This document shows positions 20,801-36,389 of a DNA stretch of 64,000 bases, in pieces (within the stretch, counting starts at the first letter, position 1; the number at the start of each line of letters is the position of its first letter). The position numbers were made by a program, and so were the translations under genes. The DNA is taken from NCBI RefSeq assembly GCF_036946495.1, contig NZ_JAQIIX010000001.1, forward strand, positions 878,697 through 942,696, read 5' to 3'. The DNA comes from Mycolicibacterium neoaurum (GTDB lineage Bacteria; Actinomycetota; Actinomycetes; Mycobacteriales; Mycobacteriaceae). Under the pieces are notes generated by a model. That model did not search any database, was not told the DNA's origin, and was given only the letters and a program-made list of their open reading frames with translations.

Positions 20801-20877
20801 GCCCTCGTATCCCAACTGGCAGAGGAAACGGATTCAAAACCCGTGCAGTGTGAGTTCGAATCTCACCGAGGGCACCA
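20801..20877 (+). tRNA. tRNA gene with encoded CCA; my cloverleaf reads anticodon CAA (Leu) but on a class I, short-variable-loop body
   Basis: Acceptor stem GCCCTCG/CGAGGGC, D-loop AACTGGCAG, T-arm GTGAG-TTCGAAT-CTCAC, discriminator A and CCA. The anticodon arm is ACGGA-TTCAAAA-CCCGT, with one A.C mismatch closing the loop. The last 25 nt are the attachment core of the integrated element. Confidence 0.8.
20853..20877 (+). repeat. attL core (3' end of the tRNA)
   Basis: Identical 25-mer to 36365-36389. Confidence 0.9.
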
Positions 20878-20922
20878 AGCAGTAATCGGCATCGCCGCTG
20901 GTACAGGTTGTTTACCGGCGGG

Positions 20923-22038
20923 TCAACCCGCTGGATTCGCGGCTTTTGCCCACAATTTGCCCACACTCGCATCAAGGCGGTCGGCCACGCCAGCGAGGTC
21001 GTCATCGAACAAATCGGCGTAAACGTCCAGCGTCATCGCCGCTGACGCGTGCCCCAGCATCCGCTGAACCACCTTCACGTTGGCGCCCGACGAGATCGCC
21101 AACGACGCCGCGGTGTGTCGCAGTGCGTGCGCTGTGACCCTCGGGAACTCGGGGTCGGCGGCCTGGCAGCGGCCGACAGCACCAGCAAGCCAGGAACGCA
21201 CCGATGACGGCGGGCCGAGGTATCCGCCGTCGCGTGCCGGCCAGATCAGCTCGTCACGCGCCTTGCCTGCGCACGTCACCGCCAGCTCGTCGACGACGAA
21301 ACCGGACAGCGCCACCGTGCGGTGATGCCCGGACTTCAGCGTGCCCACATGTGTCTTGCCGCCGACCGCGACAGCGTTCTGGTGCAGCACGATCCGCCGG
21401 CGCAGGAAGTCGATATCACCCACGGTGAGCGCAGCGGCCTCACCCCATCGGAGGCCAGCGGTACCCAAGAGGAGGATCAGTGATCCGTAGCGGCCGGACT
21501 CCGTCGCTAGCCGGTGCAGCTGCTCGACGTTCAGGTACAGGTTTCGGCGCTTGCCGCGTGCTGGGAGCTTCACACCGCGGGCCGGGTTGGCGGCCAGAAT
21601 GCGATCGCGGACCGCGTCGTCGAGGATCCGCGCGAGCACCGAGTAGACGGTGGCCACCATCGACGGGCTCAGCTTCTCGGTCAGCTCGGTGACCCACGCC
21701 TGCACGTCGGTGTAGCGGATGTCCGATACCCGCGCCTGGCGCCACCGCGGCTCGACGTGGACGCGCCACGCTGACTCGTAGGAGCGGTAGCCGCTGGGCT
21801 TCATGTGGCCTTGCTGCCGCTGCATCCAGGACGGGCCCAGCTCCCCTATCGTGACGCGGCCGAGGGTCGGTGCGATGTATTCGCCGCGCCGCTTGGACAC
21901 CTCAACCTCGGCCGCGAAGGCCTCCGCGTCGCGCTTTGTCTTGAAGCCGCGCCTATCCGTCTGACGTCGGTCGGGGGTTCGATACCTGACCCGCCATCTC
22001 CGACCTGACTTGGTTTCGTAGGGTTCAACCCTTGCCAT
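20923..22038 (-). CDS. tyrosine integrase (phage integrase family)
   Basis: 371 aa. The N-terminal arm-binding type sequence is MARVEPYETKSGRRWRVRYRTPDRRQTDRRGFKTKRDAEAF. The catalytic C-terminus is GLRWGEAAAL...HALRHTAASLAISSGANVKVVQRMLGHASAAMTLDVYADL. The gene ends 46 nt from the tRNA. Confidence 0.95.
   Translation of the reverse strand: MARVEPYETKSGRRWRVRYRTPDRRQTDRRGFKTKRDAEAFAAEVEVSKRRGEYIAPTLGRVTIGELGPSWMQRQQGHMKPSGYRSYESAWRVHVEPRWRQARVSDIRYTDVQAWVTELTEKLSPSMVATVYSVLARILDDAVRDRILAANPARGVKLPARGKRRNLYLNVEQLHRLATESGRYGSLILLLGTAGLRWGEAAALTVGDIDFLRRRIVLHQNAVAVGGKTHVGTLKSGHHRTVALSGFVVDELAVTCAGKARDELIWPARDGGYLGPPSSVRSWLAGAVGRCQAADPEFPRVTAHALRHTAASLAISSGANVKVVQRMLGHASAAMTLDVYADLFDDDLAGVADRLDASVGKLWAKAANPAG
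20947..20962 (+). repeat. 16-bp repeat TGCCCACAATTTGCCC (candidate integrase arm-type site, P' side)
   Basis: The identical 16-mer is at 36262-36277 in the same orientation. This copy lies 69 nt inside attL and the other 87 nt inside attR. Confidence 0.6.
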
Positions 22039-22702
22039 TTTCTAGCTCCCCACGCAGTTCTTCGCGAAGCCGGCGCGATACGCGCCCCCTCTTCTGCTGA
22101 TTAGCATCCGAACCAGCCTGCTGGTCGCGCTCTTCACTAAAGGTGTTGCCCCACAGCCTAAATGACGCCAGAGACAGTTGTTGAAGATCCACGCCGAGCT
22201 GCTTAGCTAGTCGCCGCTCGGCGACTCCGCTTCGATGCAACAAGTCCGTCAGATCCCGCATTGTTACACCCATTCGAGATTCGAATTCGACCAGCGCCTG
22301 AGACCGCCCCTCCCCCACACCCGAGCTACCCGAATCAGATTCCCTTGCAGCACTTTCCGAGTCAACAAAGCTCATGACGCCGCGTTCAAGGAACTCCGCT
22401 AGGTCGAGCCCCGTCATCCGCAGCGAGTCATTGAGCTCTATGACCCCTTGATGCAAAACCAGGTCAGAGATGGTGACCACCGAACCGGTCGCATGCTGGA
22501 GGGCCATCGCCAACACGAGCAGAGTTACGAAACCCGGCGATGATCTAGCGGCCTCAAAATCGCCGACAGACGAGGCCGTCCAGCGCAGACCGAGCCGGCG
22601 AGCGGATCGCGCCAGCTCATCCTGAGTAAGTCCGGAATCCTGTCGAATCGCCTTGCAGTTGCGACCGATCACTTCGGCAAGAGTCAACGTTTCTTCCACC
22701 AC
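22025..22702 (-). CDS. XRE-family HTH protein (repressor-like)
   Basis: N-terminal LTLAEVIGRNCKAIRQDSGLTQDELARSARRLGL is a Cro/C1-type HTH. There is a second HTH-like stretch near the C-terminus (AERRLAKQLGVDLQQLS). It overlaps the integrase start by 14 nt and is divergent from the xis-like gene. GC is lower than the backbone. Confidence 0.8.
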   Translation of the reverse strand: MVEETLTLAEVIGRNCKAIRQDSGLTQDELARSARRLGLRWTASSVGDFEAARSSPGFVTLLVLAMALQHATGSVVTISDLVLHQGVIELNDSLRMTGLDLAEFLERGVMSFVDSESAARESDSGSSGVGEGRSQALVEFESRMGVTMRDLTDLLHRSGVAERRLAKQLGVDLQQLSLASFRLWGNTFSEERDQQAGSDANQQKRGRVSRRLREELRGELENGKG

Positions 22703-22798
22703 ATAACGGACGATATCTGAGTTTCACGTGACTTGACTCCGGATAGCGAATGATGCATCCTCGTCACACGTCACTGATAATCACGTATCACGAGAGGA
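22703..22798. promoter_or_regulatory. divergent early-promoter/operator region of the element
   Basis: A 96-bp spacer between divergent genes. It contains the palindrome TCACGTGA (22724-22731), ACACGTCAC (22766-22774), TCACGTATCACGA (22781-22793) and a -10-like TGATAAT (22775-22781). Confidence 0.5.
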
Positions 22799-23032
22799 TT
22801 GCTTGTCTTGACCGCTCCCAAGCGACCGCCCGATATCGACACCGCCCTACCGAAAGAGGTTGCCGACGCGTTGAAAACGACAGAACAGCGACTTGCCACG
22901 ATGCGCTATCGAGGTACTGGGCCTAAATTCTGCAAGGTCGGCAGGCGGGTCCTGTACCGCTGGTCAGATGTCCGCGATTTCCTCGAAGCCAACACCGTCA
23001 CTCGAACCGACGGGCCACGGGGCGCCGCCTGA
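22799..23032 (+). CDS. excisionase/AlpA-like helix-turn-helix DNA-binding protein
   Basis: 77 aa. EVADALKTTEQRLATMRYRGTGPKFCKVGRRVLYRWSDVRDFLE matches the excisionase-family DNA-binding pattern. The start is TTG at 22799 or 22808. Confidence 0.75.
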   Translation: MLVLTAPKRPPDIDTALPKEVADALKTTEQRLATMRYRGTGPKFCKVGRRVLYRWSDVRDFLEANTVTRTDGPRGAA

Positions 23033-23174
23033 TGTGGCCTCAGGAGCATCACGCCGATTTGGGTCTGGTTGACGATGACCGCACCCCTGACATGCGAACG
23101 ACCCCCGCGGTTCCCGGTGTTGACGCACCGGGCGAGGGCCGTAGCGACCAATCCACCCGTGAGAACAGAAAGGC

Positions 23175-23720
23175 ATGACCATCATGACACACCCCGAAAA
23201 TGACGCCGTGTCTTGGCGCGATCTCGCTGATCGGCTTACCGAAACGCAGGTATTGGAGCTTGAGTGCTTCGAGAAGCAGGCCGGCGACACCAGCGCGGAC
23301 GCCGCGCAACGCGAGTGGCTCATTGGGGAGGCGCGAGACTACATCACCGAGAACGCGGTGATTGCCGAGCTGACTGCCCGTATCCAACCGCCCCGTGGTG
23401 CCAGCGCCATTTTCAGTTGGGACAGCGTCGATAAGGCATCCGGCCTCCGATACCGAGTGATCCAGTGGGCCGCACGTGAACTGGGCTATTGCAGCGTTGA
23501 TATCGACGGATATCAAGACGAGACGGGCGCTGTCGATGGTCCGCACCTTTCCGTGTACGGGCTTGACGGCACACAGATCAGTACACCCGACGCCGTCAAG
23601 TTGGCCGAAACGCTCATCGAGGCAGCCGCTGAACTGGAGCGGCTAAAACAGGCCGAATCGGCCGCGGTTTCCGGCGGCCTCAGCCTGGACGGGGCAGAGA
23701 AGAGCATCCCGCGCCAATGA
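23175..23720 (+). CDS. hypothetical protein (element early region)
   Basis: 181-aa ORF with coding-like GC3. An ATGA junction overlaps the next gene. Confidence 0.6.
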   Translation: MTIMTHPENDAVSWRDLADRLTETQVLELECFEKQAGDTSADAAQREWLIGEARDYITENAVIAELTARIQPPRGASAIFSWDSVDKASGLRYRVIQWAARELGYCSVDIDGYQDETGAVDGPHLSVYGLDGTQISTPDAVKLAETLIEAAAELERLKQAESAAVSGGLSLDGAEKSIPRQ

Positions 23721-24520
23721 GCCGAGGAATGCCTGCCGTGGGTGTCGGAGAACAGACGTCGGTACCTCTCGACGATGCCGCGGCTTTCAACCCGCGAGAG
23801 TTCCGGAGAAGCCTTCGGAACATCGGTCTGACCCCCGGCCAGTTCCGCGTAGCGGTGGAATTGTGCGAGTTCGCCGGGCCGGATAAGCCCGAGGTTTGGC
23901 CTTCGATACCGACTATCGCCGAGAACTGCGAGATGACCCAAAAAGGTGTTCAGGTCGCGTTGAAAGCGCTCACAAAAAGAGGCTTGATCGTGTGTATTCA
24001 CGCGAGCAAGGGTGGTCGCGGGCAAACAAATCGGTGGCGACTCATGGTGCCACAAACCCCGAACGCGGGTTCGGGGTTTGTGGACCAAAAACCCCGAACC
24101 CCAGTTCGGGGTTTGGCATCAGAAACCCCGAACACAGAAGCTCCTAAACCCCGAACACAGAGTCCCGAAACCCCGAACGGGGGTTCGGGGGAAGTAGTTA
24201 GAAGAAGTGAATTAGAAGAAGACCGCGCGCGGCGCCCGTCACCAGAGCTCGACAACCCAGCCGCATACGGACTGCGCCCGAGGCCCCAACAAGCCCCTCC
24301 CTGCAAACGATGCAAGAAGATCCGAGGCGAGGGATGGTGCTCGGATTGCAAGTCACACCGAGAAGCCTGTCAGCGAGATAGGGCCGCGGCCGGTGCCGCC
24401 AGATCGGCCGCGATCGCGGCCTGCACGCTGTGCAACGAATACGGGGAACTTCTCGGCCCAGACGGTCGCACCCCCGTGGATCCGATCGTCCAGCACCACA
24501 ATGCTGCGAGGTCGGCATGA
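23717..24520 (+). CDS. winged-helix DNA-binding protein with C-terminal Cys-rich region (putative replication initiator/organiser)
   Basis: The wHTH-like N-domain is FRVAVELCEFAG...PSIPTIAENCEMTQKGVQVALKALTKRGLIV. A low-complexity linker is encoded by the iteron array. The C-terminus has CKRC...CSDC...CTLC cysteines. Confidence 0.6.
   Translation: MSRGMPAVGVGEQTSVPLDDAAAFNPREFRRSLRNIGLTPGQFRVAVELCEFAGPDKPEVWPSIPTIAENCEMTQKGVQVALKALTKRGLIVCIHASKGGRGQTNRWRLMVPQTPNAGSGFVDQKPRTPVRGLASETPNTEAPKPRTQSPETPNGGSGEVVRRSELEEDRARRPSPELDNPAAYGLRPRPQQAPPCKRCKKIRGEGWCSDCKSHREACQRDRAAAGAARSAAIAACTLCNEYGELLGPDGRTPVDPIVQHHNAARSA
24050..24221. repeat. iteron/inverted-repeat array plus C-free AT-rich tract (putative origin of replication)
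   Basis: AAACCCCGAAC occurs in direct orientation at 24054, 24089, 24123, 24146 and 24168. Three copies pair with an inverted GTTCGGGG(TTT) across 4-nt spacers; the first has 15-bp arms (24050-24083). The array is followed by GAAGTAGTTAGAAGAAGTGAATTAGAAGAAG (24191-24221), about 30 percent GC by hand count and containing no C. Confidence 0.65.
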
Positions 24521-25001: not shown

Positions 25002-25003
25002 CC

Positions 25004-25459
25004 ATGAGCACGAACCGAACCCCGCTCGATGACCTGCGCTACCTGGCCGCCATCAGTGCAGATCTCCTCGACTACGCGATCGATCGGCTCGGCCTGATCG
25101 ACATGCCGCCAGCCGCTGAGGATATGCAAACGATGCTTGAGCTGGTCCAAGGGAGGATCCGGGAGTCGCTGGCAGCGCACGCCGATGACGCGCACCTTCC
25201 ACCGTCGGCGCAGCGATACTCCGACGGCCGCGCCGTTCAGACAGTCGTCGATCGCATCGAGGACCACGGCATTCGACACACCCACATCTGGCACCCCGAC
25301 GTCACCCACGAGACGAATCAGCCTCACCGCGAACAGTTCACCAGCGGCGGCGGGCACCATGTCCGGGTCGTCGGCGGCCCAGGGGTGTTCGATGTGCTCA
25401 CGCTCGATGAGCTCAGCGCGCGGCGCCTGACCTCCAGCGAGGGTCCACAGCGGACGTGA
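25004..25459 (+). CDS. hypothetical protein
   Basis: 151-aa ORF with coding-like GC3. A GTGA junction overlaps the next gene. Confidence 0.55.
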   Translation: MSTNRTPLDDLRYLAAISADLLDYAIDRLGLIDMPPAAEDMQTMLELVQGRIRESLAAHADDAHLPPSAQRYSDGRAVQTVVDRIEDHGIRHTHIWHPDVTHETNQPHREQFTSGGGHHVRVVGGPGVFDVLTLDELSARRLTSSEGPQRT

Positions 25460-25782
25460 GTCGAATCGTCTCTGTGGACCGCTACGAGTGGCTGGAACGC
25501 GTTCTCGGGCACTGTGACCTGACCGCGACTCAAAAACTCGTCCTGATCGCGCTGTGGGCCTGCACGGACGATCTGGGTGCGAACGCGAGACCTGGAACGC
25601 AGGCGTTGGCCCGATTGTGCCGAGTCGGCAGCCGCGCGGTGGACGGCGCGCTGGCCGCTGGCCGGCGACTGGAGCTGCTCGAACAGACCTCCAGAGCGAA
25701 CCCTCGGCGGCGACAGATGGCGGAATACCGTCTGACACTTCCCATCCCACCGTCATCTGTACCGCGTTACAGCTGGTACTGA
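25456..25782 (+). CDS. winged-helix DNA-binding protein
   Basis: LTATQKLVLIALWACTDDLGANARPGTQALARLCRVGSRAVDGALAAGRRLELLEQ resembles the helix-turn-helix domain proteins common in actinophage early regions. Confidence 0.55.
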   Translation: MSRIVSVDRYEWLERVLGHCDLTATQKLVLIALWACTDDLGANARPGTQALARLCRVGSRAVDGALAAGRRLELLEQTSRANPRRRQMAEYRLTLPIPPSSVPRYSWY

Positions 25783-25886
25783 ACCAGAACAGGAGTGCAG
25801 GTAGACACCGGTCAACCCGAGCCGATGTGCAGACAGAACGCCTCAACCCGAACCCCCATGCAGGCAGAAGAGGGCAGACCCGAAAG

Positions 25887-26318
25887 ATGGCACGCACCAA
25901 AGAACCACCACCGCACGGGCACTCCAGGTATCAACAGCCCTGGAACTGCCGATGCGACCTGTGTAGGTCAGACGTAGCCGCAGCCGCCCGGGAACGGAGG
26001 AAACGGCGCCGCATGAATCCGACACCGCGGAAGCCGATGCGCACGATGCCTGTCGAGAAACTGAACGACCCGGTGCTCGCCGCACTGATATCTGCCACCC
26101 GGACACCAGCTCTGCCCGGAGCCCGATGCCGTGGCCGCGCCCACCTATTCGACGAACGACACCCCGACGAGAACACCGAGGTCGCCCGCCAGCGCCAGAC
26201 GCAAGCTCTGGGCCTGTGCAGTCGGTGCCCCGCACTCGACGCCTGCCGCGTGTGGCTGAACTCCCTACCCGCCAGCCAGCAGCCCAGCGGCGTCGTCGCA
26301 GGCCTACTGCGCGATTAA
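25887..26318 (+). CDS. WhiB-like Fe-S transcription factor with N-terminal CRC-x2-C extension
   Basis: ATG at 25887 in ORF 25554..26318. The Cys pattern is ARC...LCSRCPALDAC (C-xn-C-x2-C-x5-C) followed by SGVVAGLL, the WhiB-like turn. The N-terminus has YQQPWNCRCDLC. Confidence 0.7.
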   Translation: MARTKEPPPHGHSRYQQPWNCRCDLCRSDVAAAARERRKRRRMNPTPRKPMRTMPVEKLNDPVLAALISATRTPALPGARCRGRAHLFDERHPDENTEVARQRQTQALGLCSRCPALDACRVWLNSLPASQQPSGVVAGLLRD

Positions 26319-26352: not shown

Positions 26353-26844
26353 ATGCCGCACGACCCGCGAGCGCTGAACACCATCGACTACCAGCGTGCC
26401 GCCGCGCTGATCGGCCACGAGGCCAACGGCTCGGCCGCCGGCATGCAGTTCGTCGTCGACCAGGCAGCCGGCGAGCGCCGCACCGCGCAGCTGCTCCTGG
26501 CCACCATCGACTGCTACCGCATCGTCACTGACGAGCTGCGCACCCCGGGCGCGCTCATGGCGGTGTGGCAGCTGATCGAGCAGGAGACACGCCGCCGTCC
26601 CGACAACGGTGACGCCCGCCGCGCGGCCACGGCTATCGTGGCGCGCCGCGACACCGACACCGACGCATTCAATGCCGTCCTGTTGGAGGCCAACGAAGTC
26701 GGCCGGCCCTTCGAACTGCTGGCGTCTGTGGTGGGCATCTATTCGGCGATCCTGCCCGAGCTGGCCACGCCGCACGCGACAGCGCACCTGGCGCAGTGGA
26801 CGGCCCGAATCATCGGTCGCGGCGACACCGCCGCCGGCGCGTGA
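26353..26844 (+). CDS. hypothetical protein, paralogue of 33158..33634
   Basis: 163 aa. It aligns by eye over its full length with the 158-aa product of 33158..33634 (QRAxAL, F-V/I-V-x-Q, LRT, RRA, PEL-x-P, LAQ). Confidence 0.6.
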   Translation: MPHDPRALNTIDYQRAAALIGHEANGSAAGMQFVVDQAAGERRTAQLLLATIDCYRIVTDELRTPGALMAVWQLIEQETRRRPDNGDARRAATAIVARRDTDTDAFNAVLLEANEVGRPFELLASVVGIYSAILPELATPHATAHLAQWTARIIGRGDTAAGA

Positions 26845-26990: not shown

Positions 26991-27449
26991 TTGAGCGAAA
27001 CACTCACGTATTCAGCTGTTCTCACAGTCGGCGAAGGCCGCACCGTGAGCGGTCTCCTCGTCTCCTACGGAGACACCGCCACCCGCGGTTGCTTTGCCCG
27101 CACGATCGCTGAGCGGGCGGCCAAGGTTCGGCTACTGGCCGACCTCGGCAAGGCCCGTCCCGTCGTGCTCGGTGAAGGCGCCCAGCTGCGGGAGACTGAC
27201 GAAGGCCTGCATGCGACGTTCGCTGTGCCCGAGGAGCTTTCCGCGGCCCTCGACATGGCCACCGACTGGCCGGTCACGGTCCGCACCCAACGCGTCGGCG
27301 CCAGCGAGTTCAAGCTGATCGATGTGCGCCTGGGGCTCCCCGGTCAGTCGCCGGCCCGCTCGCAACCAGCCGCGAGCACTACCGAACGCCGGATCTCCGC
27401 TGATACCGCCCGCCGCCGGTTGGCCCTGTTAGACCTGGAGCGCGCATGA
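26991..27449 (+). CDS. degenerate prohead-protease-like protein (possible scaffold)
   Basis: 152 aa with a TTG start. Its layout is protease-like (VSGLLVSYGDTA...VRLLADLG...LRETDEGLHATFAVPE) but it lacks the His and Ser contexts of the next gene. It shares the C-terminal TARRRLxLLxLER motif with the protease. An ATGA junction overlaps the protease gene. Confidence 0.55.
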   Translation: MSETLTYSAVLTVGEGRTVSGLLVSYGDTATRGCFARTIAERAAKVRLLADLGKARPVVLGEGAQLRETDEGLHATFAVPEELSAALDMATDWPVTVRTQRVGASEFKLIDVRLGLPGQSPARSQPAASTTERRISADTARRRLALLDLERA

Positions 27450-28111
27450 GAACCTTGGTGCGCGACAACCTTTGTCGGTCGCTGCCGTTCACCGCGGTCC
27501 GCGACGGGGCCGCCGACACCGACGCCGACGATGGCCGCAACTTCCAGGGCTTTGGGGCCATGTTCAACACCCCGACCCGGATCGATTCCTGGGGAGAGGG
27601 CAGATTCGACGAGCAGATCGCGCCCGGCGCGTTCCGCAAGTCGCTGCGCGAGGTGGCCCCGAAATTCCAGTTCGACCACGGCCGGCACCCACTGTTCGGC
27701 TCACTGCCCTGCGGGGTGATCACCGACATTCACGAAGACGAACGCGGCCTGTACGTCGCAGCGCGGATGGCCGCGGCCACGCTGTGGGAATCGCTGCGCG
27801 AGGCCATCGCCTCCGGTGCCGTCGACGGCATGAGTTTCCGGTTCTCCGTGATCCGGGAGGAGTGGCGCGACACCCGCGGCAAGCTCGTCCAGCCCGAAGA
27901 CGTCAAGCGGATCCTGTTCTACGGCGAACAGCCCGAACGCGCACCCCTGCTACGCACCCTCAAAGAGGTCCGCGTGACTGAAGTCGGCCCGGTCGTCTGG
28001 CCGGCCTACAGCAGCACCAGCGCCACGCTGCGCACACACCAATCCGGCAGCACCATCACCAGCTCCACGGCCCGACGCCGCCTCAAACTGCTCTCCCTGG
28101 AAAGGAACTGA
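27446..28111 (+). CDS. HK97-family phage prohead protease
   Basis: FQGFGAMFNTPTRIDSWGEGRFDEQIAPGAFRKSL, FQFDHG and VDGMSFRFS are motifs typical of the S78 prohead protease family. It lies immediately upstream of the capsid gene. Confidence 0.85.
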   Translation: MRTLVRDNLCRSLPFTAVRDGAADTDADDGRNFQGFGAMFNTPTRIDSWGEGRFDEQIAPGAFRKSLREVAPKFQFDHGRHPLFGSLPCGVITDIHEDERGLYVAARMAAATLWESLREAIASGAVDGMSFRFSVIREEWRDTRGKLVQPEDVKRILFYGEQPERAPLLRTLKEVRVTEVGPVVWPAYSSTSATLRTHQSGSTITSSTARRRLKLLSLERN

Positions 28112-28118: not shown

Positions 28119-29600
28119 ATGACCATCCGCCTCGAGACCCGCCCCGACGCTCTGGAACGACAGATCGCCGACGCCCGCAAGGAAGCCCGCACGCTGCTCG
28201 ACCGCGCCGGCGGTGCCGACCTCACCGGCGCCGAGGCCGAACGCTTCGACGAACTCACCGAGCTCATCGAGGCTGGAAACCGTCAACTGGAGGGCATCGA
28301 TCGCAACTTCGCCGCCATCCGCGACGCTGCGAGCGACCTGCGCTTCTTCCCCGGCAGCACCGGCGGCGGGGACAGCACCCGAGACGACGGTGACCAGCGT
28401 GGCCGAGCAGGTGGTGCACGCCGCCGACACCGCGACCCCTGGGACACCAGCCACCTGACGCGCATGGGTGTGTTCGGCCGCGACGAGGAATCGATCGGCA
28501 AGGAGCTGCACGAACGTGCCCTCGACGCTGTCGAGGACATGCCCCAGGCCACCGACAAGGTCCGGGAAGCGGCAACCCGGTTCATCGAGCGCGACGACCC
28601 CGACCTCGGCAGTCCGACAGCACAGCTGGTGCTGGCCACCACCAGCCCGCAGTACATGCGGTCGTTCATCAAGATCATCCGCGCCAAGGGCAACATGGCA
28701 GCGCTGCGTGCCGAAGACCAGGAGATGCTGGCCCGCGCGATGTCGCTGGTCGACCTCAATGGCGGCTTCGCCGTGCCGTTCCAGCTCGACCCGTCGGTCA
28801 TCCTGACCGCCGACGGTTCGGTGAATCAGGTCCGTGAGATCGCTCGCGTGGTCCAAGCCACAGGCGACGTCTGGCATGGCCTCTCCTCCACTGGGGTGTT
28901 CGGCTCGTGGGACGGTGAAGGCGAAGAGGTCTCCGACGATTCCCCGACGCTGGAACAGCCCGCGATCCCGGTGCACAAGTACCAGGCGTTCGTGCCGCTT
29001 TCGCATGAGCTGCAGATGGACGCCCCCGGGCTGGCCGACGACATCGCCCGAATGCTGGCCGACGACAAGGACACCAAGGAATCCATCGCGCACGTCACCG
29101 GGACAGGCGTGGGCCAGCCGACCGGCATCATCACCGCGCTGGCCGGAACCGCCTCGGTGAGGCCGGCCATCACGGCCGACACCCTGTCCGCTAAGGATGT
29201 GTACGACCTCGATAGCGCGCTGCCGCAGCGCTATGCCGCCAACGGTTCCTGGCTGGCGCACCGCAAGACCTACAACGCCTTGCGCCAGTTCGATCAGGGC
29301 GGCGGCAACGCACTGTGGGGCCAGCTCGCCGACGGCCGCAAGTCCGAGCTGCTCGGCCGACCCAACTACATCGCCGAAGCGATGAAGAGCACCATCGCCG
29401 CCGGCCAGACCAACCACATGTTGGTGTTCGGAAACTTCCGCAACTACGTCATCGCGGATCGTTTGGGCGCCACCATGTCCTACATCCCCCACCTGTTCGG
29501 CCCCAACGGGCGACCCAACGGCAAGGCCGGCTGGCACGCCTGGTTCCGCAGCGGCGCGGACAGCGTGAACGACGCAGCCTTCCGCGTCCTGGACTGCTAA
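28119..29600 (+). CDS. HK97-family phage major capsid protein
   Basis: 493 aa. It has an N-terminal coiled-coil delta-like region, then LNGGFAVPFQLDPSVILT, WDGEGEEVSD..P.L.QP.IPVHKYQAFVPLSHEL, GTGVGQPTGI, LLGRPNYIAEAM and GNFRNYVIADRLG, which are typical HK97-fold capsid signatures. Confidence 0.9.
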   Translation: MTIRLETRPDALERQIADARKEARTLLDRAGGADLTGAEAERFDELTELIEAGNRQLEGIDRNFAAIRDAASDLRFFPGSTGGGDSTRDDGDQRGRAGGARRRHRDPWDTSHLTRMGVFGRDEESIGKELHERALDAVEDMPQATDKVREAATRFIERDDPDLGSPTAQLVLATTSPQYMRSFIKIIRAKGNMAALRAEDQEMLARAMSLVDLNGGFAVPFQLDPSVILTADGSVNQVREIARVVQATGDVWHGLSSTGVFGSWDGEGEEVSDDSPTLEQPAIPVHKYQAFVPLSHELQMDAPGLADDIARMLADDKDTKESIAHVTGTGVGQPTGIITALAGTASVRPAITADTLSAKDVYDLDSALPQRYAANGSWLAHRKTYNALRQFDQGGGNALWGQLADGRKSELLGRPNYIAEAMKSTIAAGQTNHMLVFGNFRNYVIADRLGATMSYIPHLFGPNGRPNGKAGWHAWFRSGADSVNDAAFRVLDC

Positions 29601-29619
29601 CGGCCGCAACGGGTGTCAC

Positions 29620-29648
29620 GGTGGGGGTGCGTCTGGCGCACCCCCACC
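29620..29648 (+). terminator. strong GC hairpin after the capsid gene
   Basis: GGTGGGGGTGCG-tctgg-CGCACCCCCACC forms a perfect 12-bp stem (13 bp with the flanking C/G), 20 nt after the capsid stop. Confidence 0.6.
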
Positions 29649-29700
29649 GACAGGGCACCGAGTGACTTGTCAGCCATCGAGCCGATAGAAGGTAGCGATC

Positions 29701-32700
29701 TTGGCGATCCATGTGGACGTCTTCACCCGGCTCAACGAGCGGCGGGTGCGCCAGGACGCCAGGGCCCTTGTCGATGAGTTCGATAGCGCGGGCGAGCGTG
29801 CCGGTAAGAACTTCGGGGAGAACCTTTCCGCGGGCATCGAACGCTCCGGCCCGCGAGTCGAACGATCGGCAGCCCGGATGGAGAAGGCCACCGACAAGGT
29901 GGCCGACTCGATGGGCCGGGTCAATGTCGAGATGGCGAAATATGCGGAGCTGCAGAAGAAATCGACCGCGACTGACCGACAGAAGATCCAGCAGTCGGAA
30001 GCCCTGGCTCGGGCCCAGCGGGCGCACGCCGCCGCGGTGCGCGATGCAACCCGTGCCATGATGCGTTCCAACGAGGAATCTGACCGCACCGTCTCACGCA
30101 TGGCCACCCTCAACACCAGCCTGAGCTTGATGGGCAAGGGTAGCGGTGCGCTGGCCATCGGTGCGCTGGCCCCCACGCTCGCCGTCGCAGCTGGTGCCGC
30201 GGCCACCGCCGCCGGTGCAATAGCGCTGCTGCCCGGTGCGATCGGCGGGGCTGTCGCCGCGTTCGGGGCCCTCAAGATCGCCACCCTCGGGTTCGGCGAC
30301 GCGATGAGCAACCTGCGCGACCCGGAGAAGTTCGCCGAGTCACTGCAGTCGCTGTCCCCGAATGCCCAGCAAGCAGCGCTGTCGATCCGATCGTTGATGC
30401 CCGCCTTCGACTCGCTGAAGAACACGACTCAGGACGCCCTGTTCGATGGGATATCGGGCCAAATCCAGTCACTGTCAACATCATTGATGCCGACCGTGCA
30501 GCGTGTCACCGTCGGCGTCGCGGGTGCGTTCAATGAGATTTTCATGGGCGTCACCAGTCAGCTGATGTCCCCGGATACCTTCGCTTCGCTGGACAACCTC
30601 GCCGATAACGTGGTGAGCGCGTTCGACAAGCTGGCACCGGCCGCGGCCCCTTTCACCGCAGCCATGACCGACATCATGAGCGTCGGCTCGGAGTTCCTGC
30701 CCGGCATGGCCGACGCGGTCAGCGCCGCCGCGCAGAAGTTCGCCGCGTTCATCAGCGAAGGGATGCGCACCGGCGAGCTGAAACAACACATGGCTGACGC
30801 GTTGGCCGTGGCCAAGGAGATCGGCAGAGCCATCATCGCGGTGGGCAACGCATTCGTCTCCCTGGGGCCGGCCGCCCGTGAGGTGCTGCCCGTCCTGGTC
30901 GACGGTCTGGACTCCGTGTCGAAGCTGCTGCGCGAACACCCCAACCTGATCTGGGGCGTGGTCGGCGCGTTCACAGCATGGAAGACCATCCAGGGCGTCG
31001 CCGCACTGACCTCGTCACTACAGACCATCAGCACCCTGCTCAGCACCGGCCTGCCCGCCGCCGCCGGCAAGGGCGCTGGCGGGATCACCGCCGCACTGGC
31101 CAAGATCAAGATGCCGCCCTGGCTGCTGACGATCGGCAAATGGGCTCCGCTGGCCGGTGTGGGCCTGAACTCCGACGTCCGCACCCCTGGCGAGGTCGGG
31201 CTGCCCGCAGTCCAATATGACGACCAGGGGCGCCCCTACCTGCCCGGCACTGCGTATGACCCAGGCCTCAACCGCACCGGCGGCAGCTTCGGACCCGGCG
31301 CCGACCAGTTCCAACCCCACCCCGGGCGTGCACCCTTCGGGACTGGCCTGACCAACGGACGCCCGCACAACGCCCCCGAGACACCGCTGTTCGACGTGCC
31401 AGTACCCACGGGCACCAACAGCGGCCCGCGACTGCCCGACGCGCCCGTGCTGCCCTACACAGCCAATCGCAGCACCGCGCCCACCGCGGCGCTGTTCTCC
31501 GCCGAGAACGCCGTCTACGACGCCCGCCACGACCTCGAGGAGAAGCGCGCCCGACTCACCCAGCTCCAGTCCACCAACACCGCGACAGACAGCGACATCC
31601 AGGACGCCCGCAACGACGTGGCCAAGGCAGAAGAAGACGAGCACGAAGCTCAGCTGCGATTGAACGAAGCACGACTGTCGGCCACCCGCGCGGGAATCAA
31701 CCAGCTCAACTCCGCTGCCAACCAGCTGGGCGATATCGGCGCGAAACTGGACCAGGACTTCGGCCTGTCGCGTGGTCTGCCTGGGCTTGCGGAGAACCTG
31801 ATCAAGTTCGTCGCCAATCTTGCTGCCGCTGGCCCGATGGCACAGCTCGGCGCCATCGCGGCCGCCTCCCCGTCCCAGGGTGGCTACGGCGCAATGGGGG
31901 TCCTCGGTGCCCAGGGCGCGTTCGGCGATCGATTCACCGGCATCGACCCCCAGCGCATGTACGGCGGATACGGGCCGTCGGGGATCGGCCCGGCCGCGCT
32001 CGGCGGCGGCATGGGATACGGGGCCTACCCCGGGGACGCCGCGCTGCTGGCCAACGTGCCGTCCGGCCGCTACACCCAGGAAGAACGCGGCGATCTCACC
32101 CAGGGTCTGGCCGACTGCTCCAGCGCCGTCGAAGACCTCGTCAACATGCTGGACGGGCGGCCCACCGGTGGGGCGTCGATGACGACGCACAACGCTCACG
32201 AGTGGCTGCAGTCCCGCGGGTTCCGGCCCGGTATGGGCGGACCGGGTGACATGCGTGTCGGGTTCAACCCCGACCACATGCAGGCAACACTGCCCGGCGG
32301 AACGCCCTTCAACTGGGGGTCGAAGGAGGCAGCGGCCCGCGGTGGTGTCGGCGGTACCGGTGCATACGACCCGTCGTTCACGTCGCACTACTACCGGCCG
32401 GCCACCGGCGGCGTGCCGTCACTGACTACCAGCCCGTCGTTGGCGCCGAGCCCGTCACTGTCCACCAGCGGTGTGCCGTCCTCGGCCGCGCTCAACAGCG
32501 ACCCCTCGCTGACCAACCCCGCCCTCACCCCGGCGGTCCTGCCGCCACTCGGGTCGGTGCCCAGCAGCGGCGGCCCATTCAGCACCGGAATGCCGCAGGC
32601 TGCGTTCTTCGGCGGCCCGGGAGGCCCTGGCGCGGGTGCCACACCGATCGGTGGGCTCGCCCCGCCCGGGGGCTCCGGCGGTGGCGGCGCGGTCGGACTC

Positions 32701-33144
32701 ACCGGCGGCGGCGCGATCGGTCTCGGCATGCAGGCCGGCGGTATGGCCCTCGACGTCATGGCGCCAGGCGCCGGACAGGCTGCGCAAACCGCAATCAAGC
32801 TCGGCTCTCGCGCCATCGAGTTCGGATCCCAAGCCGGCAGCATCGGTGTCAGCGGCGTCATGGAAACCCTGCTGCCCACCGGCGGATCGGAGCTGGCCAA
32901 CAACAACTGGGCCACCAAGCTCCTCGGCGGGCTAGCAGGCATGGGCCCAGCACTGCCGAACACCGCCGGCGGGAAGTCCGCCGGCCAGCTGGGCGGCCAA
33001 CCCGCGCAAAGCGACCAGAACGCACCGAACGAGACGAACAACAACTACGACGTCAAAATCGACGCTGCCGCAAGGGATTCCGGAGGACTCATGCGCGACT
33101 TCGAGTACCACACCACCGCGGCCGCAGCCGCCCCCGGAATGTAA
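29701..33144 (+). CDS. tape-measure-like protein with embedded Cys/His peptidase-like segment
   Basis: 1147 aa. It has N-terminal coiled-coil-type sequence, Gly/Ala-rich hydrophobic segments (GALAIGALAPTLAVAAGAAATAAGAIALLPGAIGG) and long low-complexity Gly/Pro regions. There is an LADCSSAVEDLV...NPDHMQATL segment. The overall layout matches actinophage tape-measure proteins. Confidence 0.7.
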   Translation: MAIHVDVFTRLNERRVRQDARALVDEFDSAGERAGKNFGENLSAGIERSGPRVERSAARMEKATDKVADSMGRVNVEMAKYAELQKKSTATDRQKIQQSEALARAQRAHAAAVRDATRAMMRSNEESDRTVSRMATLNTSLSLMGKGSGALAIGALAPTLAVAAGAAATAAGAIALLPGAIGGAVAAFGALKIATLGFGDAMSNLRDPEKFAESLQSLSPNAQQAALSIRSLMPAFDSLKNTTQDALFDGISGQIQSLSTSLMPTVQRVTVGVAGAFNEIFMGVTSQLMSPDTFASLDNLADNVVSAFDKLAPAAAPFTAAMTDIMSVGSEFLPGMADAVSAAAQKFAAFISEGMRTGELKQHMADALAVAKEIGRAIIAVGNAFVSLGPAAREVLPVLVDGLDSVSKLLREHPNLIWGVVGAFTAWKTIQGVAALTSSLQTISTLLSTGLPAAAGKGAGGITAALAKIKMPPWLLTIGKWAPLAGVGLNSDVRTPGEVGLPAVQYDDQGRPYLPGTAYDPGLNRTGGSFGPGADQFQPHPGRAPFGTGLTNGRPHNAPETPLFDVPVPTGTNSGPRLPDAPVLPYTANRSTAPTAALFSAENAVYDARHDLEEKRARLTQLQSTNTATDSDIQDARNDVAKAEEDEHEAQLRLNEARLSATRAGINQLNSAANQLGDIGAKLDQDFGLSRGLPGLAENLIKFVANLAAAGPMAQLGAIAAASPSQGGYGAMGVLGAQGAFGDRFTGIDPQRMYGGYGPSGIGPAALGGGMGYGAYPGDAALLANVPSGRYTQEERGDLTQGLADCSSAVEDLVNMLDGRPTGGASMTTHNAHEWLQSRGFRPGMGGPGDMRVGFNPDHMQATLPGGTPFNWGSKEAAARGGVGGTGAYDPSFTSHYYRPATGGVPSLTTSPSLAPSPSLSTSGVPSSAALNSDPSLTNPALTPAVLPPLGSVPSSGGPFSTGMPQAAFFGGPGGPGAGATPIGGLAPPGGSGGGGAVGLTGGGAIGLGMQAGGMALDVMAPGAGQAAQTAIKLGSRAIEFGSQAGSIGVSGVMETLLPTGGSELANNNWATKLLGGLAGMGPALPNTAGGKSAGQLGGQPAQSDQNAPNETNNNYDVKIDAAARDSGGLMRDFEYHTTAAAAAPGM

Positions 33145-33157
33145 GGCAATCGATCTC

Positions 33158-33634
33158 ATGACAGACCCCGTGACCACTTCACCCGTCGACGAGCAGCGGG
33201 CATCCGCACTGCTCTCACACCTTGCATCGGCCGATCAGCAAGGCGCCGCATTCATCGTCAACCAATCCGCGGCCGACGGCAGGCACACAGCGCTACTCGC
33301 AGCCATCGCCGACACCGGCGGCAAACTGATGGCGGCACTGCGCACCGACACAGGCATCGAAGCCGCGGTATCCATGGTCCAAGCCTGGGTAGAACAGGAC
33401 GAATCGCCAGATCACCGGCGTGCGGGCGGCATCATCGCCTGCCGATTCCAGTTCGAGCACGCCCACTTCCTCGGCCACATCGCCGACGCAGCAGCGGCTG
33501 GCCGTCTCGACGAACTCGTCCTGACCACCGCGCAGTGCTACCTGGCGCTCATGCCAGAACTGCATGCCCCGAAAGGGCGAGCCACCCTGGCGCAAATGGC
33601 AGCCGCTCTATCCAGCGAGTCCCCAGACCGATGA
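33158..33634 (+). CDS. hypothetical protein, paralogue of 26353..26844
   Basis: 158 aa with full-length similarity to the 26353..26844 product. It is followed by a terminator hairpin. Confidence 0.6.
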   Translation: MTDPVTTSPVDEQRASALLSHLASADQQGAAFIVNQSAADGRHTALLAAIADTGGKLMAALRTDTGIEAAVSMVQAWVEQDESPDHRRAGGIIACRFQFEHAHFLGHIADAAAAGRLDELVLTTAQCYLALMPELHAPKGRATLAQMAAALSSESPDR

Positions 33635-33653
33635 GCTCAAGCCCCCGGCAACC

Positions 33654-33678
33654 GGGGTGTCCGCCGAACGGACACCCC
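33654..33678 (+). terminator. hairpin terminator
   Basis: GGGGTGTCCG-ccgaa-CGGACACCCC forms a perfect 10-bp stem, 20 nt after the stop at 33634. Confidence 0.55.
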
Positions 33679-33885
33679 CGCACTAGTTTGCTGATGCACA
33701 CCCGGAGTTTGCTGGAGCGGGCCGCCCGCCCGGGGGGTACCTCAAAGATCGTGGGAAACGCCCAGGCGGCAAGACCCGTCGGGGGCAGTCGTCTTTCGCG
33801 GAGAGTCGCTGACCTGCACATGTGCACTCCCACTTGGGGCGTCAACGGTTTGCTACGTGTTTGCTGGATTGGTTGCTGATGCGGT

Positions 33886-34386
33886 ATGGCGAAGGCTCAT
33901 AATCGCACGACCTACAACCAAGGTTGCCGCTGTGACGTGTGCGTACAGGCGAACTCCGACTACCGCAAGCAACGCCGCATGCAGAAGAACGGCGAAGTTG
34001 CTGAACGGAAACCGAAGCGGCTGGCCGTGGTCAAAAATGTGCAACCCGATGTGCACACAAAAGTGCACATTCCCGGCGAGCCCACACCGGACCCGCCAGA
34101 GCCCGGCGAATGGTCCGTCGAGGCCGAAGTCCGCGCCCAGCTGGCCGAGCTTTCCGCCACCACCACACGCCGCGGCGAAGTTGCTGCAGCGATCGCGATG
34201 GCCCGCCTCCTGGACAACCCACGCGCGATCGCGCAGCACCCCGCCGCCACAGGCCGCCTTGTCGAGATCATCGAACGTCTACGTAAGGGCTCCGATCGGA
34301 AAACCGGCAAGCTCGCAGCTGTTCGCAAGATGACCCGCGGCACGGACGGCGCACCTAACGTTGATGGCCATGGGCAAGCACAGTAG
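33886..34386 (+). CDS. basic protein with N-terminal Y-x2-G-CRC-x2-C motif (DNA-binding or possibly small-terminase-like)
   Basis: 166 aa. The N-terminus is MAKAHNRTTYNQGCRCDVCVQANSDYRKQRRMQKNG, and the C-terminal half is helical (LLDNPRAIAQHPAATGRLVEIIERLRK). Clustered GTTTGCT repeats precede the gene. Confidence 0.55.
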   Translation: MAKAHNRTTYNQGCRCDVCVQANSDYRKQRRMQKNGEVAERKPKRLAVVKNVQPDVHTKVHIPGEPTPDPPEPGEWSVEAEVRAQLAELSATTTRRGEVAAAIAMARLLDNPRAIAQHPAATGRLVEIIERLRKGSDRKTGKLAAVRKMTRGTDGAPNVDGHGQAQ

Positions 34387-34636
34387 ACGCCGGGCCGCGG
34401 CCGGCCTGGATCCGCTGGTGCCGCTCGCCGGCGGCGACCAGGCGTTCGAGCTCGTCGACGATGGCCCCGTGCTGGCCGGCACGCTGCGCCAGCTCGCCGG
34501 CAGAATCATCGACTGCAACGACTGGGCACACATCCGGCTGAACGCGCAGATCATGGACACCCCCGCGGCTCGCGCCCAGGTCCCCAACGCCGCCGCCACG
34601 CTGCGCCAGTACTTCGACCGCTACCACCCCGCATGA
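34364..34636 (+). CDS. hypothetical protein
   Basis: About 90 aa in a frame with strong GC3 bias. The antisense ORF 34355..34627 is Gly/Arg/Val-rich and looks like an artefact. The start is TTG at 34361, or ATG at 34364 or 34370. Confidence 0.5.
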   Translation: MAMGKHSRRRAAAGLDPLVPLAGGDQAFELVDDGPVLAGTLRQLAGRIIDCNDWAHIRLNAQIMDTPAARAQVPNAAATLRQYFDRYHPA

Positions 34637-34641
34637 TGCGT

Positions 34642-34830
34642 TCAGAAGCCCCGCTTGATCTGCCTTATCACCTGGGCCAGGTTGCCGTCTTCACGGTCGA
34701 GTTCCTCGATTGCGCGCGCAAGGCTTTCCATCCCCTCGGCTAGCGCAATCACCGCTGGGTCGCCTGACGATTGCATGGCCTGCCTGGCTTTCGCGCCCGC
34801 TTGACGGGCGTGGTTGGCCGTGTTGCTCAA
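34642..34830 (-). CDS. small helical protein, unknown (last gene of the reverse cargo operon)
   Basis: 62 aa, MSNTANHARQAGAKARQAMQSS...LARAIEELDREDGNLAQVIRQIKRGF. It lies 25 nt after the upstream gene, and local GC is lower. Confidence 0.5.
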   Translation of the reverse strand: MSNTANHARQAGAKARQAMQSSGDPAVIALAEGMESLARAIEELDREDGNLAQVIRQIKRGF

Positions 34831-34855
34831 CGTTTGATCTCCTTGATAATTAGAG

Positions 34856-35389
34856 TCAGTACTCGTCGCGAGGGATGTCTGTTAGCCGGCTCGGCACCGC
34901 TTCGACCACGCCGATGCCGTCATACTCAGGCTCGGGTCGCCTGACTCGGAACGGTGCGTGGTACGCCACGCGACGTAGGTCTTTCATGCCGCTATGCACC
35001 AATTGGACTGCAGTAGTGGCGTGCCGGCCTTCGTCTCGTTTGGCATGCATCGCGTCGCGATACATGATGACGTTGGCCATTCGTTGTTGGACTACGTTCG
35101 CCGCGCGGCGGACATCAGGATCAGGGTGCCCGTAAGCAAGCCAGTTGAGGTTCGGCTCGATCTCTTTCTGCAGCTTGTCCTGCAGCTCCATCGCTCGGTT
35201 CCAGCTCTCCTTCTGCTGCTCGTCGGTGAACTCGCGGTCGAACACGCTGGAGGCGAACAGTGTGACCTCCCTGAAGAGCTCCCGCATCCAGTACCGGTCA
35301 ATCTCCGCAACGACCCCAATCGTCCTCTCATGCAGCTGGCGAACAAACGCCCTGTATTCGCTGTCCAGGACGTCATCAATCTCGCTCAT
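34856..35389 (-). CDS. hypothetical protein, no recognisable family
   Basis: 177 aa, predicted mostly helical, with an ATG start. It begins 12 nt after the upstream gene's stop. Confidence 0.6.
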   Translation of the reverse strand: MSEIDDVLDSEYRAFVRQLHERTIGVVAEIDRYWMRELFREVTLFASSVFDREFTDEQQKESWNRAMELQDKLQKEIEPNLNWLAYGHPDPDVRRAANVVQQRMANVIMYRDAMHAKRDEGRHATTAVQLVHSGMKDLRRVAYHAPFRVRRPEPEYDGIGVVEAVPSRLTDIPRDEY

Positions 35390-35401
35390 ATCCCCTACCT
35401 T

Positions 35402-35887
35402 TCAACTACTGATGATGGTGCCCCCGGCACCACCGAGAGCGGTGATAGCCACCTGCGAGCCGAATCCACCGAGCCATAACGCAGCTCGTTTGAACTTGCT
35501 CCGCTCCTCTTCGTCTCGGTGCTCGTCTGCGCCAGCCGTTTCCAACGCGCACACGAGCCGGTCGAGGAGTGCCTCAGGGGTCGGCCATGCGCCTGCCACC
35601 CGAAGTGCGGCACCGGTCGGTGCACCGACGTACCAAAGCTCACCACTGGCAGCCGCCATCTTGCCCTTCTCATCGAGGTAGGGCTCGGCATAGAGTGCGC
35701 GCAACGCCCGTTGGACGTCGTTCTTGTCCATGCCGGTTCGCCGGTAAATGCTCCCAGCATCGATGCTGGTCTCGCCCGACTCGATGAAGATCTCCACGAC
35801 CGCTTTCAACACCGGCAGGTCGCGGCTCTCCCACGTCTCACGCATCATGCCTGCGACGCTACTGGCAGCCACCGACGTGCAAGCCAA
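35402..35887 (-). CDS. winged-helix-like protein with Gly-rich hydrophobic C-terminal tail
   Basis: The N-part (LPVLKAVVEIFIESGETSIDAGSIYRRTGMDKNDVQRALRALYAEPYL) looks wHTH-like. The C-terminus AALWLGGFGSQVAITALGGAGGTIISS looks like a membrane or glycine-zipper segment. The likelier start is the ATG pair at 35848/35845. Confidence 0.55.
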   Translation of the reverse strand: MACTSVAASSVAGMMRETWESRDLPVLKAVVEIFIESGETSIDAGSIYRRTGMDKNDVQRALRALYAEPYLDEKGKMAAASGELWYVGAPTGAALRVAGAWPTPEALLDRLVCALETAGADEHRDEEERSKFKRAALWLGGFGSQVAITALGGAGGTIISS

Positions 35888-35945
35888 ACCAACGGCGGTC
35901 TCACCCGATCGGCCGACATACTCATCATGCCGTCAGCCCATGTCG

Positions 35946-36356
35946 CTACAGTGGCAAGTCAGTCAGCGCAGTCCCGCGCTCGCCCCCGAGGTGATCGGTC
36001 CACGTGATCTCGATCCTGGGCGGGTTTGACCGTGCGCCCATGGCCACTTTGAACGGCGCAGCCACGTAGTCGCCTTGCTGCATTTCAGCCCGCTTTGCGG
36101 ACCAGTCACGACGGGCGATGGTCCCGCCGACCGCCGCGCCCTTCAGACGCATCTCTACGCGGGTAACCGCATGCCCGGTGTTGTTCGCGATGACCAGCAG
36201 AGATCCGCGATCTCGCCGCACTGTCCACTCGTCCACTTGGTGTAACCTTCCTGACCACAATATGCCCACAATTTGCCCGCAGTTACAGATATCTGACGGT
36301 ATGTCTGAATACCTAAAGTTGCTGGTGAAAGACCGTGCATCCCGCTGAACTGGCAC
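35946..36356 (-). CDS. hypothetical protein (first gene of the reverse cargo operon)
   Basis: 136-aa ORF whose C-terminal about 100 aa look beta-rich. The 5' end overlaps the arm-type repeat and the tRNA-like remnant, so the real start may be GTG at 36268. Confidence 0.45.
   Translation of the reverse strand: MPVQRDARSFTSNFRYSDIPSDICNCGQIVGILWSGRLHQVDEWTVRRDRGSLLVIANNTGHAVTRVEMRLKGAAVGGTIARRDWSAKRAEMQQGDYVAAPFKVAMGARSNPPRIEITWTDHLGGERGTALTDLPL
36262..36277 (+). repeat. 16-bp repeat TGCCCACAATTTGCCC (candidate integrase arm-type site, P side)
   Basis: Identical to 20947-20962. It is preceded by a related ACCACAAT. Confidence 0.6.
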
Positions 36357-36364
36357 GAAAAAAC

Positions 36365-36389
36365 AGTTCGAATCTCACCGAGGGCACCA
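36365..36389 (+). repeat. attR core (duplicated tRNA 3' end)
   Basis: Identical 25-mer to 20853-20877. Confidence 0.9.

Follow-up and report, generated by a model that had tools for sequence, protein, structure and literature searches.

Phage satellites shape phage-host dynamics and move genes, and in mycobacteria they are almost unstudied. The EPIPs of Mycolicibacterium aichiense, such as Alyssa1 (OR387110), were the first Mycobacteriaceae satellites to be isolated: they are 11 kb long and encode a serine integrase, a small terminase, an adaptor, a stopper, a capsid protein, and a tape measure protein (TMP), which their authors describe as otherwise almost unknown in satellites; by electron microscopy, their particles have small heads and long, variable tails (Qian et al., bioRxiv, December 2025, PMC12822802). 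Other mycobacterial islands, which combine an integrase with a capsid protein, are already listed in the literature as candidate PICIs, the prototypes being phiRv1 and phiRv2; terminase and scaffold genes are reported in some of them, and a tape measure gene is named in neither account (Abad et al. 2023, PMC10654092; de Sousa et al. 2023, PMC10085698, which also lists the cfPICI family). This article concerns an island at positions 20853-36389 of a 64,000-nucleotide stretch of the Mycolicibacterium neoaurum genome (contig NZ_JAQIIX010000001.1, positions 878,697 to 942,696; hereafter the window). We think it likely that the island is an integrated, helper-dependent phage satellite of Mycolicibacterium, and not a decayed prophage.

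The virion genes of the island are limited to four, for a protease, an inactive paralogue of that protease, a capsid protein, and a TMP. Open reading frames (ORFs) were picked by third-position GC and scanned with Pfam, PHROGs, and NCBIfam. The virion module and the two paralogous genes around it are as follows:

26353-26844, plus strand: helical protein of 163 aa, family-specific, first of two paralogues around the virion module (alignment with the 158-aa paralogue)
26991-27449, plus strand: putative inactive prohead protease paralogue, 152 aa (alignment, hhalign, TIGR01543)
27446-28111, plus strand: HK97-type prohead serine protease (S78), 221 aa (PF04586, 6e-24; phrog_80)
28119-29600, plus strand: HK97-type major capsid protein, 493 aa (PF05065, 1.5e-47; TIGR01554)
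29701-33144, plus strand: full-length TMP, 1147 aa (phrog_2337, 5e-233)
33158-33634, plus strand: paralogue of the 163-aa protein, 158 aa (alignment; kept in the relatives L090 and L091)

The TMP gene starts 101 nt after the capsid gene, with no other gene between them. Its product aligns end to end with the TMPs of cluster N phages (46-54%), and its C-terminal domain matches a solved mycobacteriophage TMP (8zdo_S); the TMP of one relative carries a transglycosylase domain. By these comparisons the TMP of the window looks functional. The capsid protein is of two parts: its N-terminal ~100 residues, which are delta/scaffold-like, show similarity in members of the island's own family only, and phage capsid proteins align to it only from residue ~103 onward. 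Indeed, complete phages with capsid proteins of similar identity have in common the protease and the capsid residues from ~103, and nothing more.

The 152-aa protein encoded just upstream of the protease reads as a diverged, catalytically dead paralogue of it. The two are related by profile alignment (hhalign probability 93.7%, E 1.9e-7), the 152-aa protein matches TIGR01543 (2.5e-4), and one relative's copy draws a weak Peptidase_S78 flag. The His of the FQFDH motif and the Ser of DGMSFRF are taken as the catalytic pair of HK97-type proteases; in every aligned 152-aa paralogue another residue stands in place of the first, and the second is lost together with the region around it. The paralogue and the protease nonetheless share the C-terminal ending ARRRLxLLxLE (at 27449 and 28111, respectively), a tail that is kept in four aligned family members and that may be a targeting peptide for the capsid interior. 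The paralogue is rare, with 19 representative clusters among 1.84 billion. Rare too is the 163-aa protein, with 18 relatives only among 5.8 billion clusters. It is encoded where a small terminase gene would be expected; it has no match in Pfam, PHROG, NCBIfam, or PADLOC and no sequence match in PDB, and its all-helical AlphaFold2 model (pLDDT 81) has no fold match in PDB or BFVD.

Equally telling is what the island lacks. Pfam, PHROG, and NCBIfam gave no island match to a terminase, portal, connector, tail tube, assembly chaperone, minor tail or tail tip, or lysis gene. The corresponding proteins of the M. abscessus prophage prophiGD02-2 and of the cluster N phage MichelleMyBell, the nearest two phage types, were also searched against the island in six frames; no fragment of them was found, and the protease, the capsid protein, and the TMP alone gave matches. 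Likewise, no terminase small subunit or equivalent and no recognizable cos or pac site was recognized in the island. The genes that mark an intact temperate siphovirus prophage (terminase, portal, connectors, tail genes, and lysis cassette) are therefore missing, which rules out a self-sufficient prophage. A preliminary description of this DNA had spoken of a phage-like island: the term is correct, but too coarse for a gene set reduced in this way.

How does this gene set compare with those of known satellites? Like the EPIPs, the element would be a satellite of Mycolicibacterium; in Alyssa1 and here the capsid gene is followed directly by the TMP gene, and both lack genes for tail tube, tail tip, and lysis. 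However, it is 15.5 kb long and inserted at a tRNA gene by means of a tyrosine integrase, whereas the EPIP is ~11 kb with a serine integrase; it carries a protease and pseudo-protease, a 493-aa HK97-type capsid protein, and a 1147-aa TMP; and it yielded no terminase small subunit, adaptor, or stopper. Core proteins show marginal similarity to those of Alyssa1 (best E 1e-4 and 2e-4). Identity with the EPIPs was rejected, as size, integrase type, gene set, and sequence all differ. The element would thus belong to a second lineage with the capsid-plus-TMP design, without real sequence homology to EPIPs and tRNA-integrated in several Mycolicibacterium species. A second lineage unrelated by sequence would make tail hijacking by a satellite-encoded TMP a recurring strategy and not a one-off.

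By operational definition, the element falls in the candidate PICI/phiRv-like class of mycobacteria: it has an integrase, a regulator pair, a replication gene, and a length within ~10-18 kb, and most virion and lysis genes are missing. Members of this class are small integrase-plus-capsid islands, some with a protease, many of them at tRNAs and proposed to be helper-dependent, and in all of this the element resembles them. With phiRv1 and phiRv2 it was compared by published descriptions; those two are ~10 kb long, and neither is known to have a TMP. A gene for DUF3631, a family typical of phiRv-type elements, occurs in two relatives of the element, L090 and L101, the latter being too fragmented for further interpretation. 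Integrase-plus-capsid islands are known in mycobacteria; the distinguishing features here are the capsid-plus-TMP set, the dead-protease paralogue, and the tightly conserved length.

Two further classes bring the capsid into focus. The cfPICIs make their own HK97-type capsid protein and protease, as the element does, and use helper tails; they also encode a portal, head-tail connectors, and terminase subunits, and to our knowledge no tail component. Identity with cfPICIs was rejected: portal, connectors, and terminase were not found, and a TMP is present. Satellites of the SaPI and P4 type pack genomes of ~11-15 kb in small T=4 capsids, the size of which is set by CpmB, Sid, or Ccm. Those satellites remodel the capsid protein of the helper, whereas the element here brings its own; by analogy, the pseudo-protease is a candidate for an extra scaffold protein that determines size. 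Ccm, for its part, is a capsid homologue that sets size (PMC8569155).

Searches with the capsid protein located relatives of the element, at least four of them complete and one cut at a contig end:

L082/L086, M. neoaurum VKM Ac-1815D: at tRNA-Gly(TCC), attachment (att) repeat of 39 bp, capsid identity 99%
L091, Mycolicibacterium sp. Y3: at tRNA-Tyr, att repeat of 69 bp, capsid identity 63%
L096, Mycolicibacterium sp. jd: at tRNA-Val(GAC), att repeat of 32 bp, capsid identity 56%
L090, Logan contig: bounded by a tRNA-Gly-like core, capsid identity 65%
L098, M. palauense: beside tRNA-Thr, the contig stopping after the capsid gene, capsid identity 59%

All share a common core in the same order: a helical protein of ~160 aa, the pseudo-protease, the protease, the capsid protein, and a TMP of 1135-1241 aa. 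The 158-aa paralogue and two small genes downstream of it are also present in most relatives; integrases, early genes, and accessory arms vary between members. The reduced gene set and the length of ~15.5 kb recur in independent elements at other tRNAs, which marks the island as a satellite-type element. Scans of IMG/VR with the capsid protein and the 163-aa family returned the M. neoaurum element as the sole family member. The Logan contig was considered as an excised circle, and this was rejected: it ends ~30 nt into the att core, which fits a break in the k-mer graph. The marker proteins of the family could be used to detect satellites in mycobacterial genomes.

Counted between the starts of its two att repeats, the element in the window is 15512 bp long, and the others come to 15514, 15549, 15533, and 15961 bp. 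Four of them agree within 37 bp while sharing as little as 10% of their DNA. The sp. jd element is the extreme case: only ~10% of its DNA can be aligned with the others, and its arms measure ~3.8/7.8/3.9 kb as against 5.5/8.3/1.7 kb, yet its total length differs by ~20 bp. Packaging by cos or headful mechanisms usually tolerates far more variation in length. The one explanation offered for the near-constant length is the packaging limit of a small capsid; a capsid holding ~15.5 kb would account for it. Together, the near-constant length and the dead-protease paralogue provide testable handles on how capsid size is matched to DNA length.

Comparison of the window with the M. neoaurum VKM Ac-1815D copy (L086) shows that the core genes are under purifying selection. 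Ratios of nonsynonymous to synonymous substitution (dN/dS) are 0.09 (capsid protein), 0.28 (protease), 0.27 (pseudo-protease), and 0.36 (TMP); the two small genes downstream, of 166 and 91 aa, give 0.14 and 0.17, and the 163-aa protein gives 0.58. The two elements are strongly mosaic (window 28119-33144 against L086 10001-15120): capsid proteins are 99% identical (dS 0.05), TMPs 63% (dS 0.66), and the 163-aa proteins 55%. This mosaicism suggests that the capsid module was exchanged recently or that the TMP diversifies fast.

The island sits in the 3' end of a tRNA-Leu(CAA) gene, with the following features at its ends:

20801-20877, plus strand: tRNA-Leu(CAA), the integration target, intact after insertion (ARAGORN; Rfam tRNA, 49.6 bits)
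20853-20877, plus strand: attL core of 25 bp, the 3' end of the tRNA including CCA (exact repeat; homology with relatives ends at 20877)
36365-36389, plus strand: attR core of 25 bp (exact repeat; homology to the empty-site relative restarts at 36430)
20945-20965, no strand: two tandem arm-type repeats TTTGCCCACA at 11-bp spacing, putative P' arm, within the 3' end of int
36249-36280, no strand: three copies of the arm-type repeat at 11-bp spacing, putative P arm

The core, AGTTCGAATCTCACCGAGGGCACCA, has exactly two copies in the window; it has no extra copies there at up to 3 mismatches and gave none in 100 shuffles. Exact matching, ARAGORN, and Rfam agree that this direct repeat forms the tRNA 3' end and recurs at 36365-36389, as the preliminary description had it, and the identity of the two cores and the presence of candidate arm sites also held up. 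A 15-mer version of the arm motif, GCCCACAATTTGCCC, has 3 matches against 0.09 expected. From the sequence, attP is predicted to read ...CTGGCACGAAAAAAC-25-bp core-AGCAGTAATCGGCATCGCC, and the restored attB ...CCGTGCAGTGTG-core-GTAACACCTCCAGGAACGCC.

Where would such an element be absent? The comparison set consisted of 80 loci around pdtaR from other species. In seven of these (L001, L002, L003, L006, L008, L019, and L023), nucleotide homology with the window reaches 20877 and then ends. The 25-mer might have been a common dispersed repeat, the outcome that the preliminary description had named as refuting its reading; instead it is single, and at the tRNA, in nearly all of the pdtaR loci that have it. 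Exceptions are L013, in which two copies surround another island, and L080, in which a second match has 3 mismatches. None of the 80 loci provides a strict empty site, as the TRIC gene that borders the island on its right lies beside the tRNA in none of them, and the empty site was therefore sought through TRIC homologues. It was found, at the level of species and not of strain, in L093 (Mycobacterium sp. NPDC003323) and L094. Both have the order pdtaR (Response_reg plus ANTAR), tRNA-Leu(CAA), TRIC, cellulase, MASE7-cyclase, and ferritin, the same as in the window flanks. Window 14791-20877 corresponds to L093 162-6276, and window 36430-37093 to L093 6287-6953. The two blocks are 10 bp apart in L093, which confirms both the island boundaries and the earlier assignment of pdtaR and TRIC to the chromosomal backbone; tRNA followed directly by TRIC is the empty arrangement that the preliminary description had suggested looking for. 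The element thus entered the 3' end of tRNA-Leu(CAA) by site-specific recombination.

Genes for integration, regulation, and replication occupy the left part of the island:

20923-22038, minus strand: tyrosine integrase, 371 aa, with an N-terminal arm-binding domain (PF00589, 1e-18; PF14657, Arm-DNA-bind_4; phrog_1, 1.5e-68)
22025-22702, minus strand: helix-turn-helix (HTH; cI/Xre-like) regulator, 225 aa, candidate repressor (HTH_3 and HTH_31, both under the Pfam cut-off)
22799-23032, plus strand: Xis-like HTH_17 protein, 77 aa, divergent from the regulator (PF12728, 28.6 bits; cut-off 27)
23717-24520, plus strand: replication initiator, O-like/DnaD-like, 267 aa (PF13730 HTH_36, 3.6e-8; phrog_270, phrog_391)
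25456-25782, plus strand: short protein like the N-terminus of the replication initiator (phrog_26991, 2e-20; phrog_270; kept in L086 and L091)
25851-26318, plus strand: WhiB-like protein with an HNH-like zinc motif (start uncertain in the frame 25554-26318; PF02467, 3e-4, under cut-off; phrog_9926, phrog_4234)

The integrase retains the box motifs LRWGE, HALRHT, LGHAS, and DVYADL, with the catalytic R, HxxR, H, and Y all kept, in line with the original view of an intact reading frame. Its distance of 46 nt from the left core was also given correctly; what lies there, however, is the stop-codon end of the gene and not its start. In the proposed search against phages, the best match was the integrase of Gordonia phage Gsput1 (55%). 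The HTH_17 domain of the Xis-like protein recurs in the relatives L086, L096, and L098, and L091 and L098 carry an HTH_31/HTH_3 gene at the position of the window regulator. An intact int, an Xis-like gene, identical cores, and arm sites are consistent with excisability, and on these features the element is probably still mobile. The int/attP module for tRNA-Leu(CAA) could serve as an integration vector.

The strongest competitor to a satellite is a prophage that has become defective, in which a temperate siphovirus, complete at one time, would be decaying in place after internal deletions, its att sites intact by luck. The recognizable virion genes are, after all, ordinary phage genes with homologues of 50-66% identity in complete phages; the junction between capsid and TMP genes sits where complete phages have ~5 kb of genes; and integrase remnants at the same tRNA in other species (L020, L021, and L027) show that decay happens there. 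However, the same "deletions" are found in at least five other elements with different tRNAs and integrases and capsid identities down to 56%. The island holds no leftover gene fragments; its core ORFs are all intact, and their dN/dS lies at 0.09-0.36, the 163-aa protein (0.58) being the exception; and total length stays within 37 bp across four elements that may have no more than 10% of their DNA in common. The same losses at five tRNAs with different integrases, the lack of fragments, and the conservation of genes and length make decay unlikely; the family comparison already largely refutes it, and vertical descent of every member from a single insertion is at odds with the different tRNAs and integrases.

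Less probable again, and by our estimate quite improbable, is a non-viral use, in which the module would form an encapsulin-like compartment or a gene-transfer-agent-like device serving the host, and the island would move by other means, for instance mycobacterial conjugation. Such a device would suit a capsid protein and a protease that come with neither portal nor terminase, and with no packaging gene found; it would also suit the second protein that carries the protease C-terminal tail, a feature resembling cargo targeting in HK97-fold compartments. But a full-length TMP kept by purifying selection is meaningful only if there is a tail, the capsid protein clusters with those of genuine phages, and Int, Xis, repressor, and replication initiator form the classic layout of a satellite or prophage; the constant length, too, points to DNA packaging. 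Finally, a complete minimal autonomous phage, its missing functions residing in the ~10 ORFs without an assigned function, is barely credible: those ORFs are all at most 181 aa long, as against >350 aa for portals and large terminases, and jointly offer too little for portal, terminase, tube, tip, and lysis.

For a helper-dependent satellite, the gene set suggests the following general model. The HTH regulator would keep the element repressed. Infection by a helper siphovirus, or its induction, would lead to excision at the 25-bp core by Int and the Xis-like protein, and replication would be driven by the element's own initiator. Small procapsids of its own would be built from the island's capsid protein and protease, with the dead protease paralogue, bearing the protease C-terminal tail, acting as internal scaffold or size determinant; the capsid might be T=4-like, with a capacity of ~15.5 kb. 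The helper would supply portal, terminase, connectors, tail tube, tail tip, and lysis. In tail assembly, the satellite's own TMP would replace that of the helper, and thereby set tail length, bring a domain for penetrating the cell wall, or both. We infer helper dependence and excision from gene content and comparison.

Several points weigh against this reading. No helper phage was identified, and neither an excised circle, an attP junction, nor a particle was seen. No small terminase and no cos or pac site was recognized through which packaging would be redirected; and a capsid protein that comes without its own portal must fit a foreign one. The closest phage relatives are the M. abscessus prophage prophiGD02-2 for the capsid protein and cluster N phages for the TMP, and with such different affinities there is no single obvious type of helper. 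Cluster N phages as the single helper type were rejected: they share the TMP, but not the capsid protein and protease. The conserved length is based on five elements, and the family is rare, with 18 and 19 relatives for two marker proteins.

A bolder proposal, which we put forward tentatively and regard as doubtful, is that these elements form a distinct and so far undescribed lineage of mycobacterial satellites. It would differ from every characterized class in three ways jointly: its own small capsid with a dead-protease scaffold; its own TMP, remodelling the helper tail; and a genome held to ~15.53 kb (within 0.02 kb either way in four of five members) though 90% of the DNA differs, which would imply an unusually exact constraint of packaging or length sensing.

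The part of the island to the right of the virion module comprises a non-coding region, small genes, and an accessory arm:

33634-33886, no strand: conserved non-coding region of ~250 bp, with GTTTGCTR-type repeats (3 exact, 2 variant) around a ~110-bp core
33886-34636, plus strand: two conserved small genes, 166 aa (Cys-rich N-terminus, phrog_37967) and 91 aa
34642-36356, minus strand: variable accessory arm of four ORFs, 62, 177, 161, and 136 aa (no convincing Pfam, PHROG, or PADLOC match)

Within the ~110-bp core of the non-coding region lie CCCCGGGGGG and a palindrome, CACATGTGCAC. Of four exact GTTTGCTR-type matches in the window, three fall in this region, which is ~92% conserved with the VKM Ac-1815D element although the gene upstream of it differs. 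A search of 33640-33890 against phage genomes gave no match, and the only Rfam family in the island is tRNA. By its conservation and repeats, the region may be a cos or pac site, an origin, or a regulatory region.

In the accessory arm, relatives have HicB, PhdYeFM, or ribbon-helix-helix (RHH) genes instead, and PADLOC matched no defence-system gene in the island. A Cys-rich motif, Y-x2-GCRCD-x-C, followed by a basic stretch, occurs in two island proteins (at 33886-33990 and at ~25900-26000); it probably represents a zinc-ribbon DNA-binding element. The motif has no Pfam match of useful score, and Pfam scans of the small conserved proteins at relaxed thresholds brought up nothing of use.

A scan of the regulatory region for sigma-70 promoters and terminators found nothing. 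In the early region, four relatives have a second protein with a tyrosine recombinase domain (L086, 5604-6671; L090, 3065-3958; L098, 6087-7019; L101, 124-1020), at the place where the window has the O-like replication initiator.

The TRIC-family gene to the right of attR (36441-37106) is patchily distributed. It has only four close homologues (82-98%), from mycobacterial genomes or from metagenome and read-assembly contigs; the next are 63-69% identical and include Nocardia. One metagenome contig (L092, 1-31) is 93% identical to the right flank of the window and ends 21 nt past the attR core, as it would if assembly had broken off at the repeated end of the tRNA; this contig has no bearing on occupancy.

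The tRNA-Leu(CAA) gene beside pdtaR is a hot spot of integration. L039 and L047 have intact integrases at this tRNA that are 69-72% identical to that of the window, whereas the copy in L020 is frameshifted and those in L021 and L027 are reduced to short pieces of the C-terminus. A different island of ~9.2 kb lies between two cores at this tRNA in M. rhodesiae JS60 (L013), and in L002 ~5 kb of unrelated DNA separates the tRNA from the cellulase gene.

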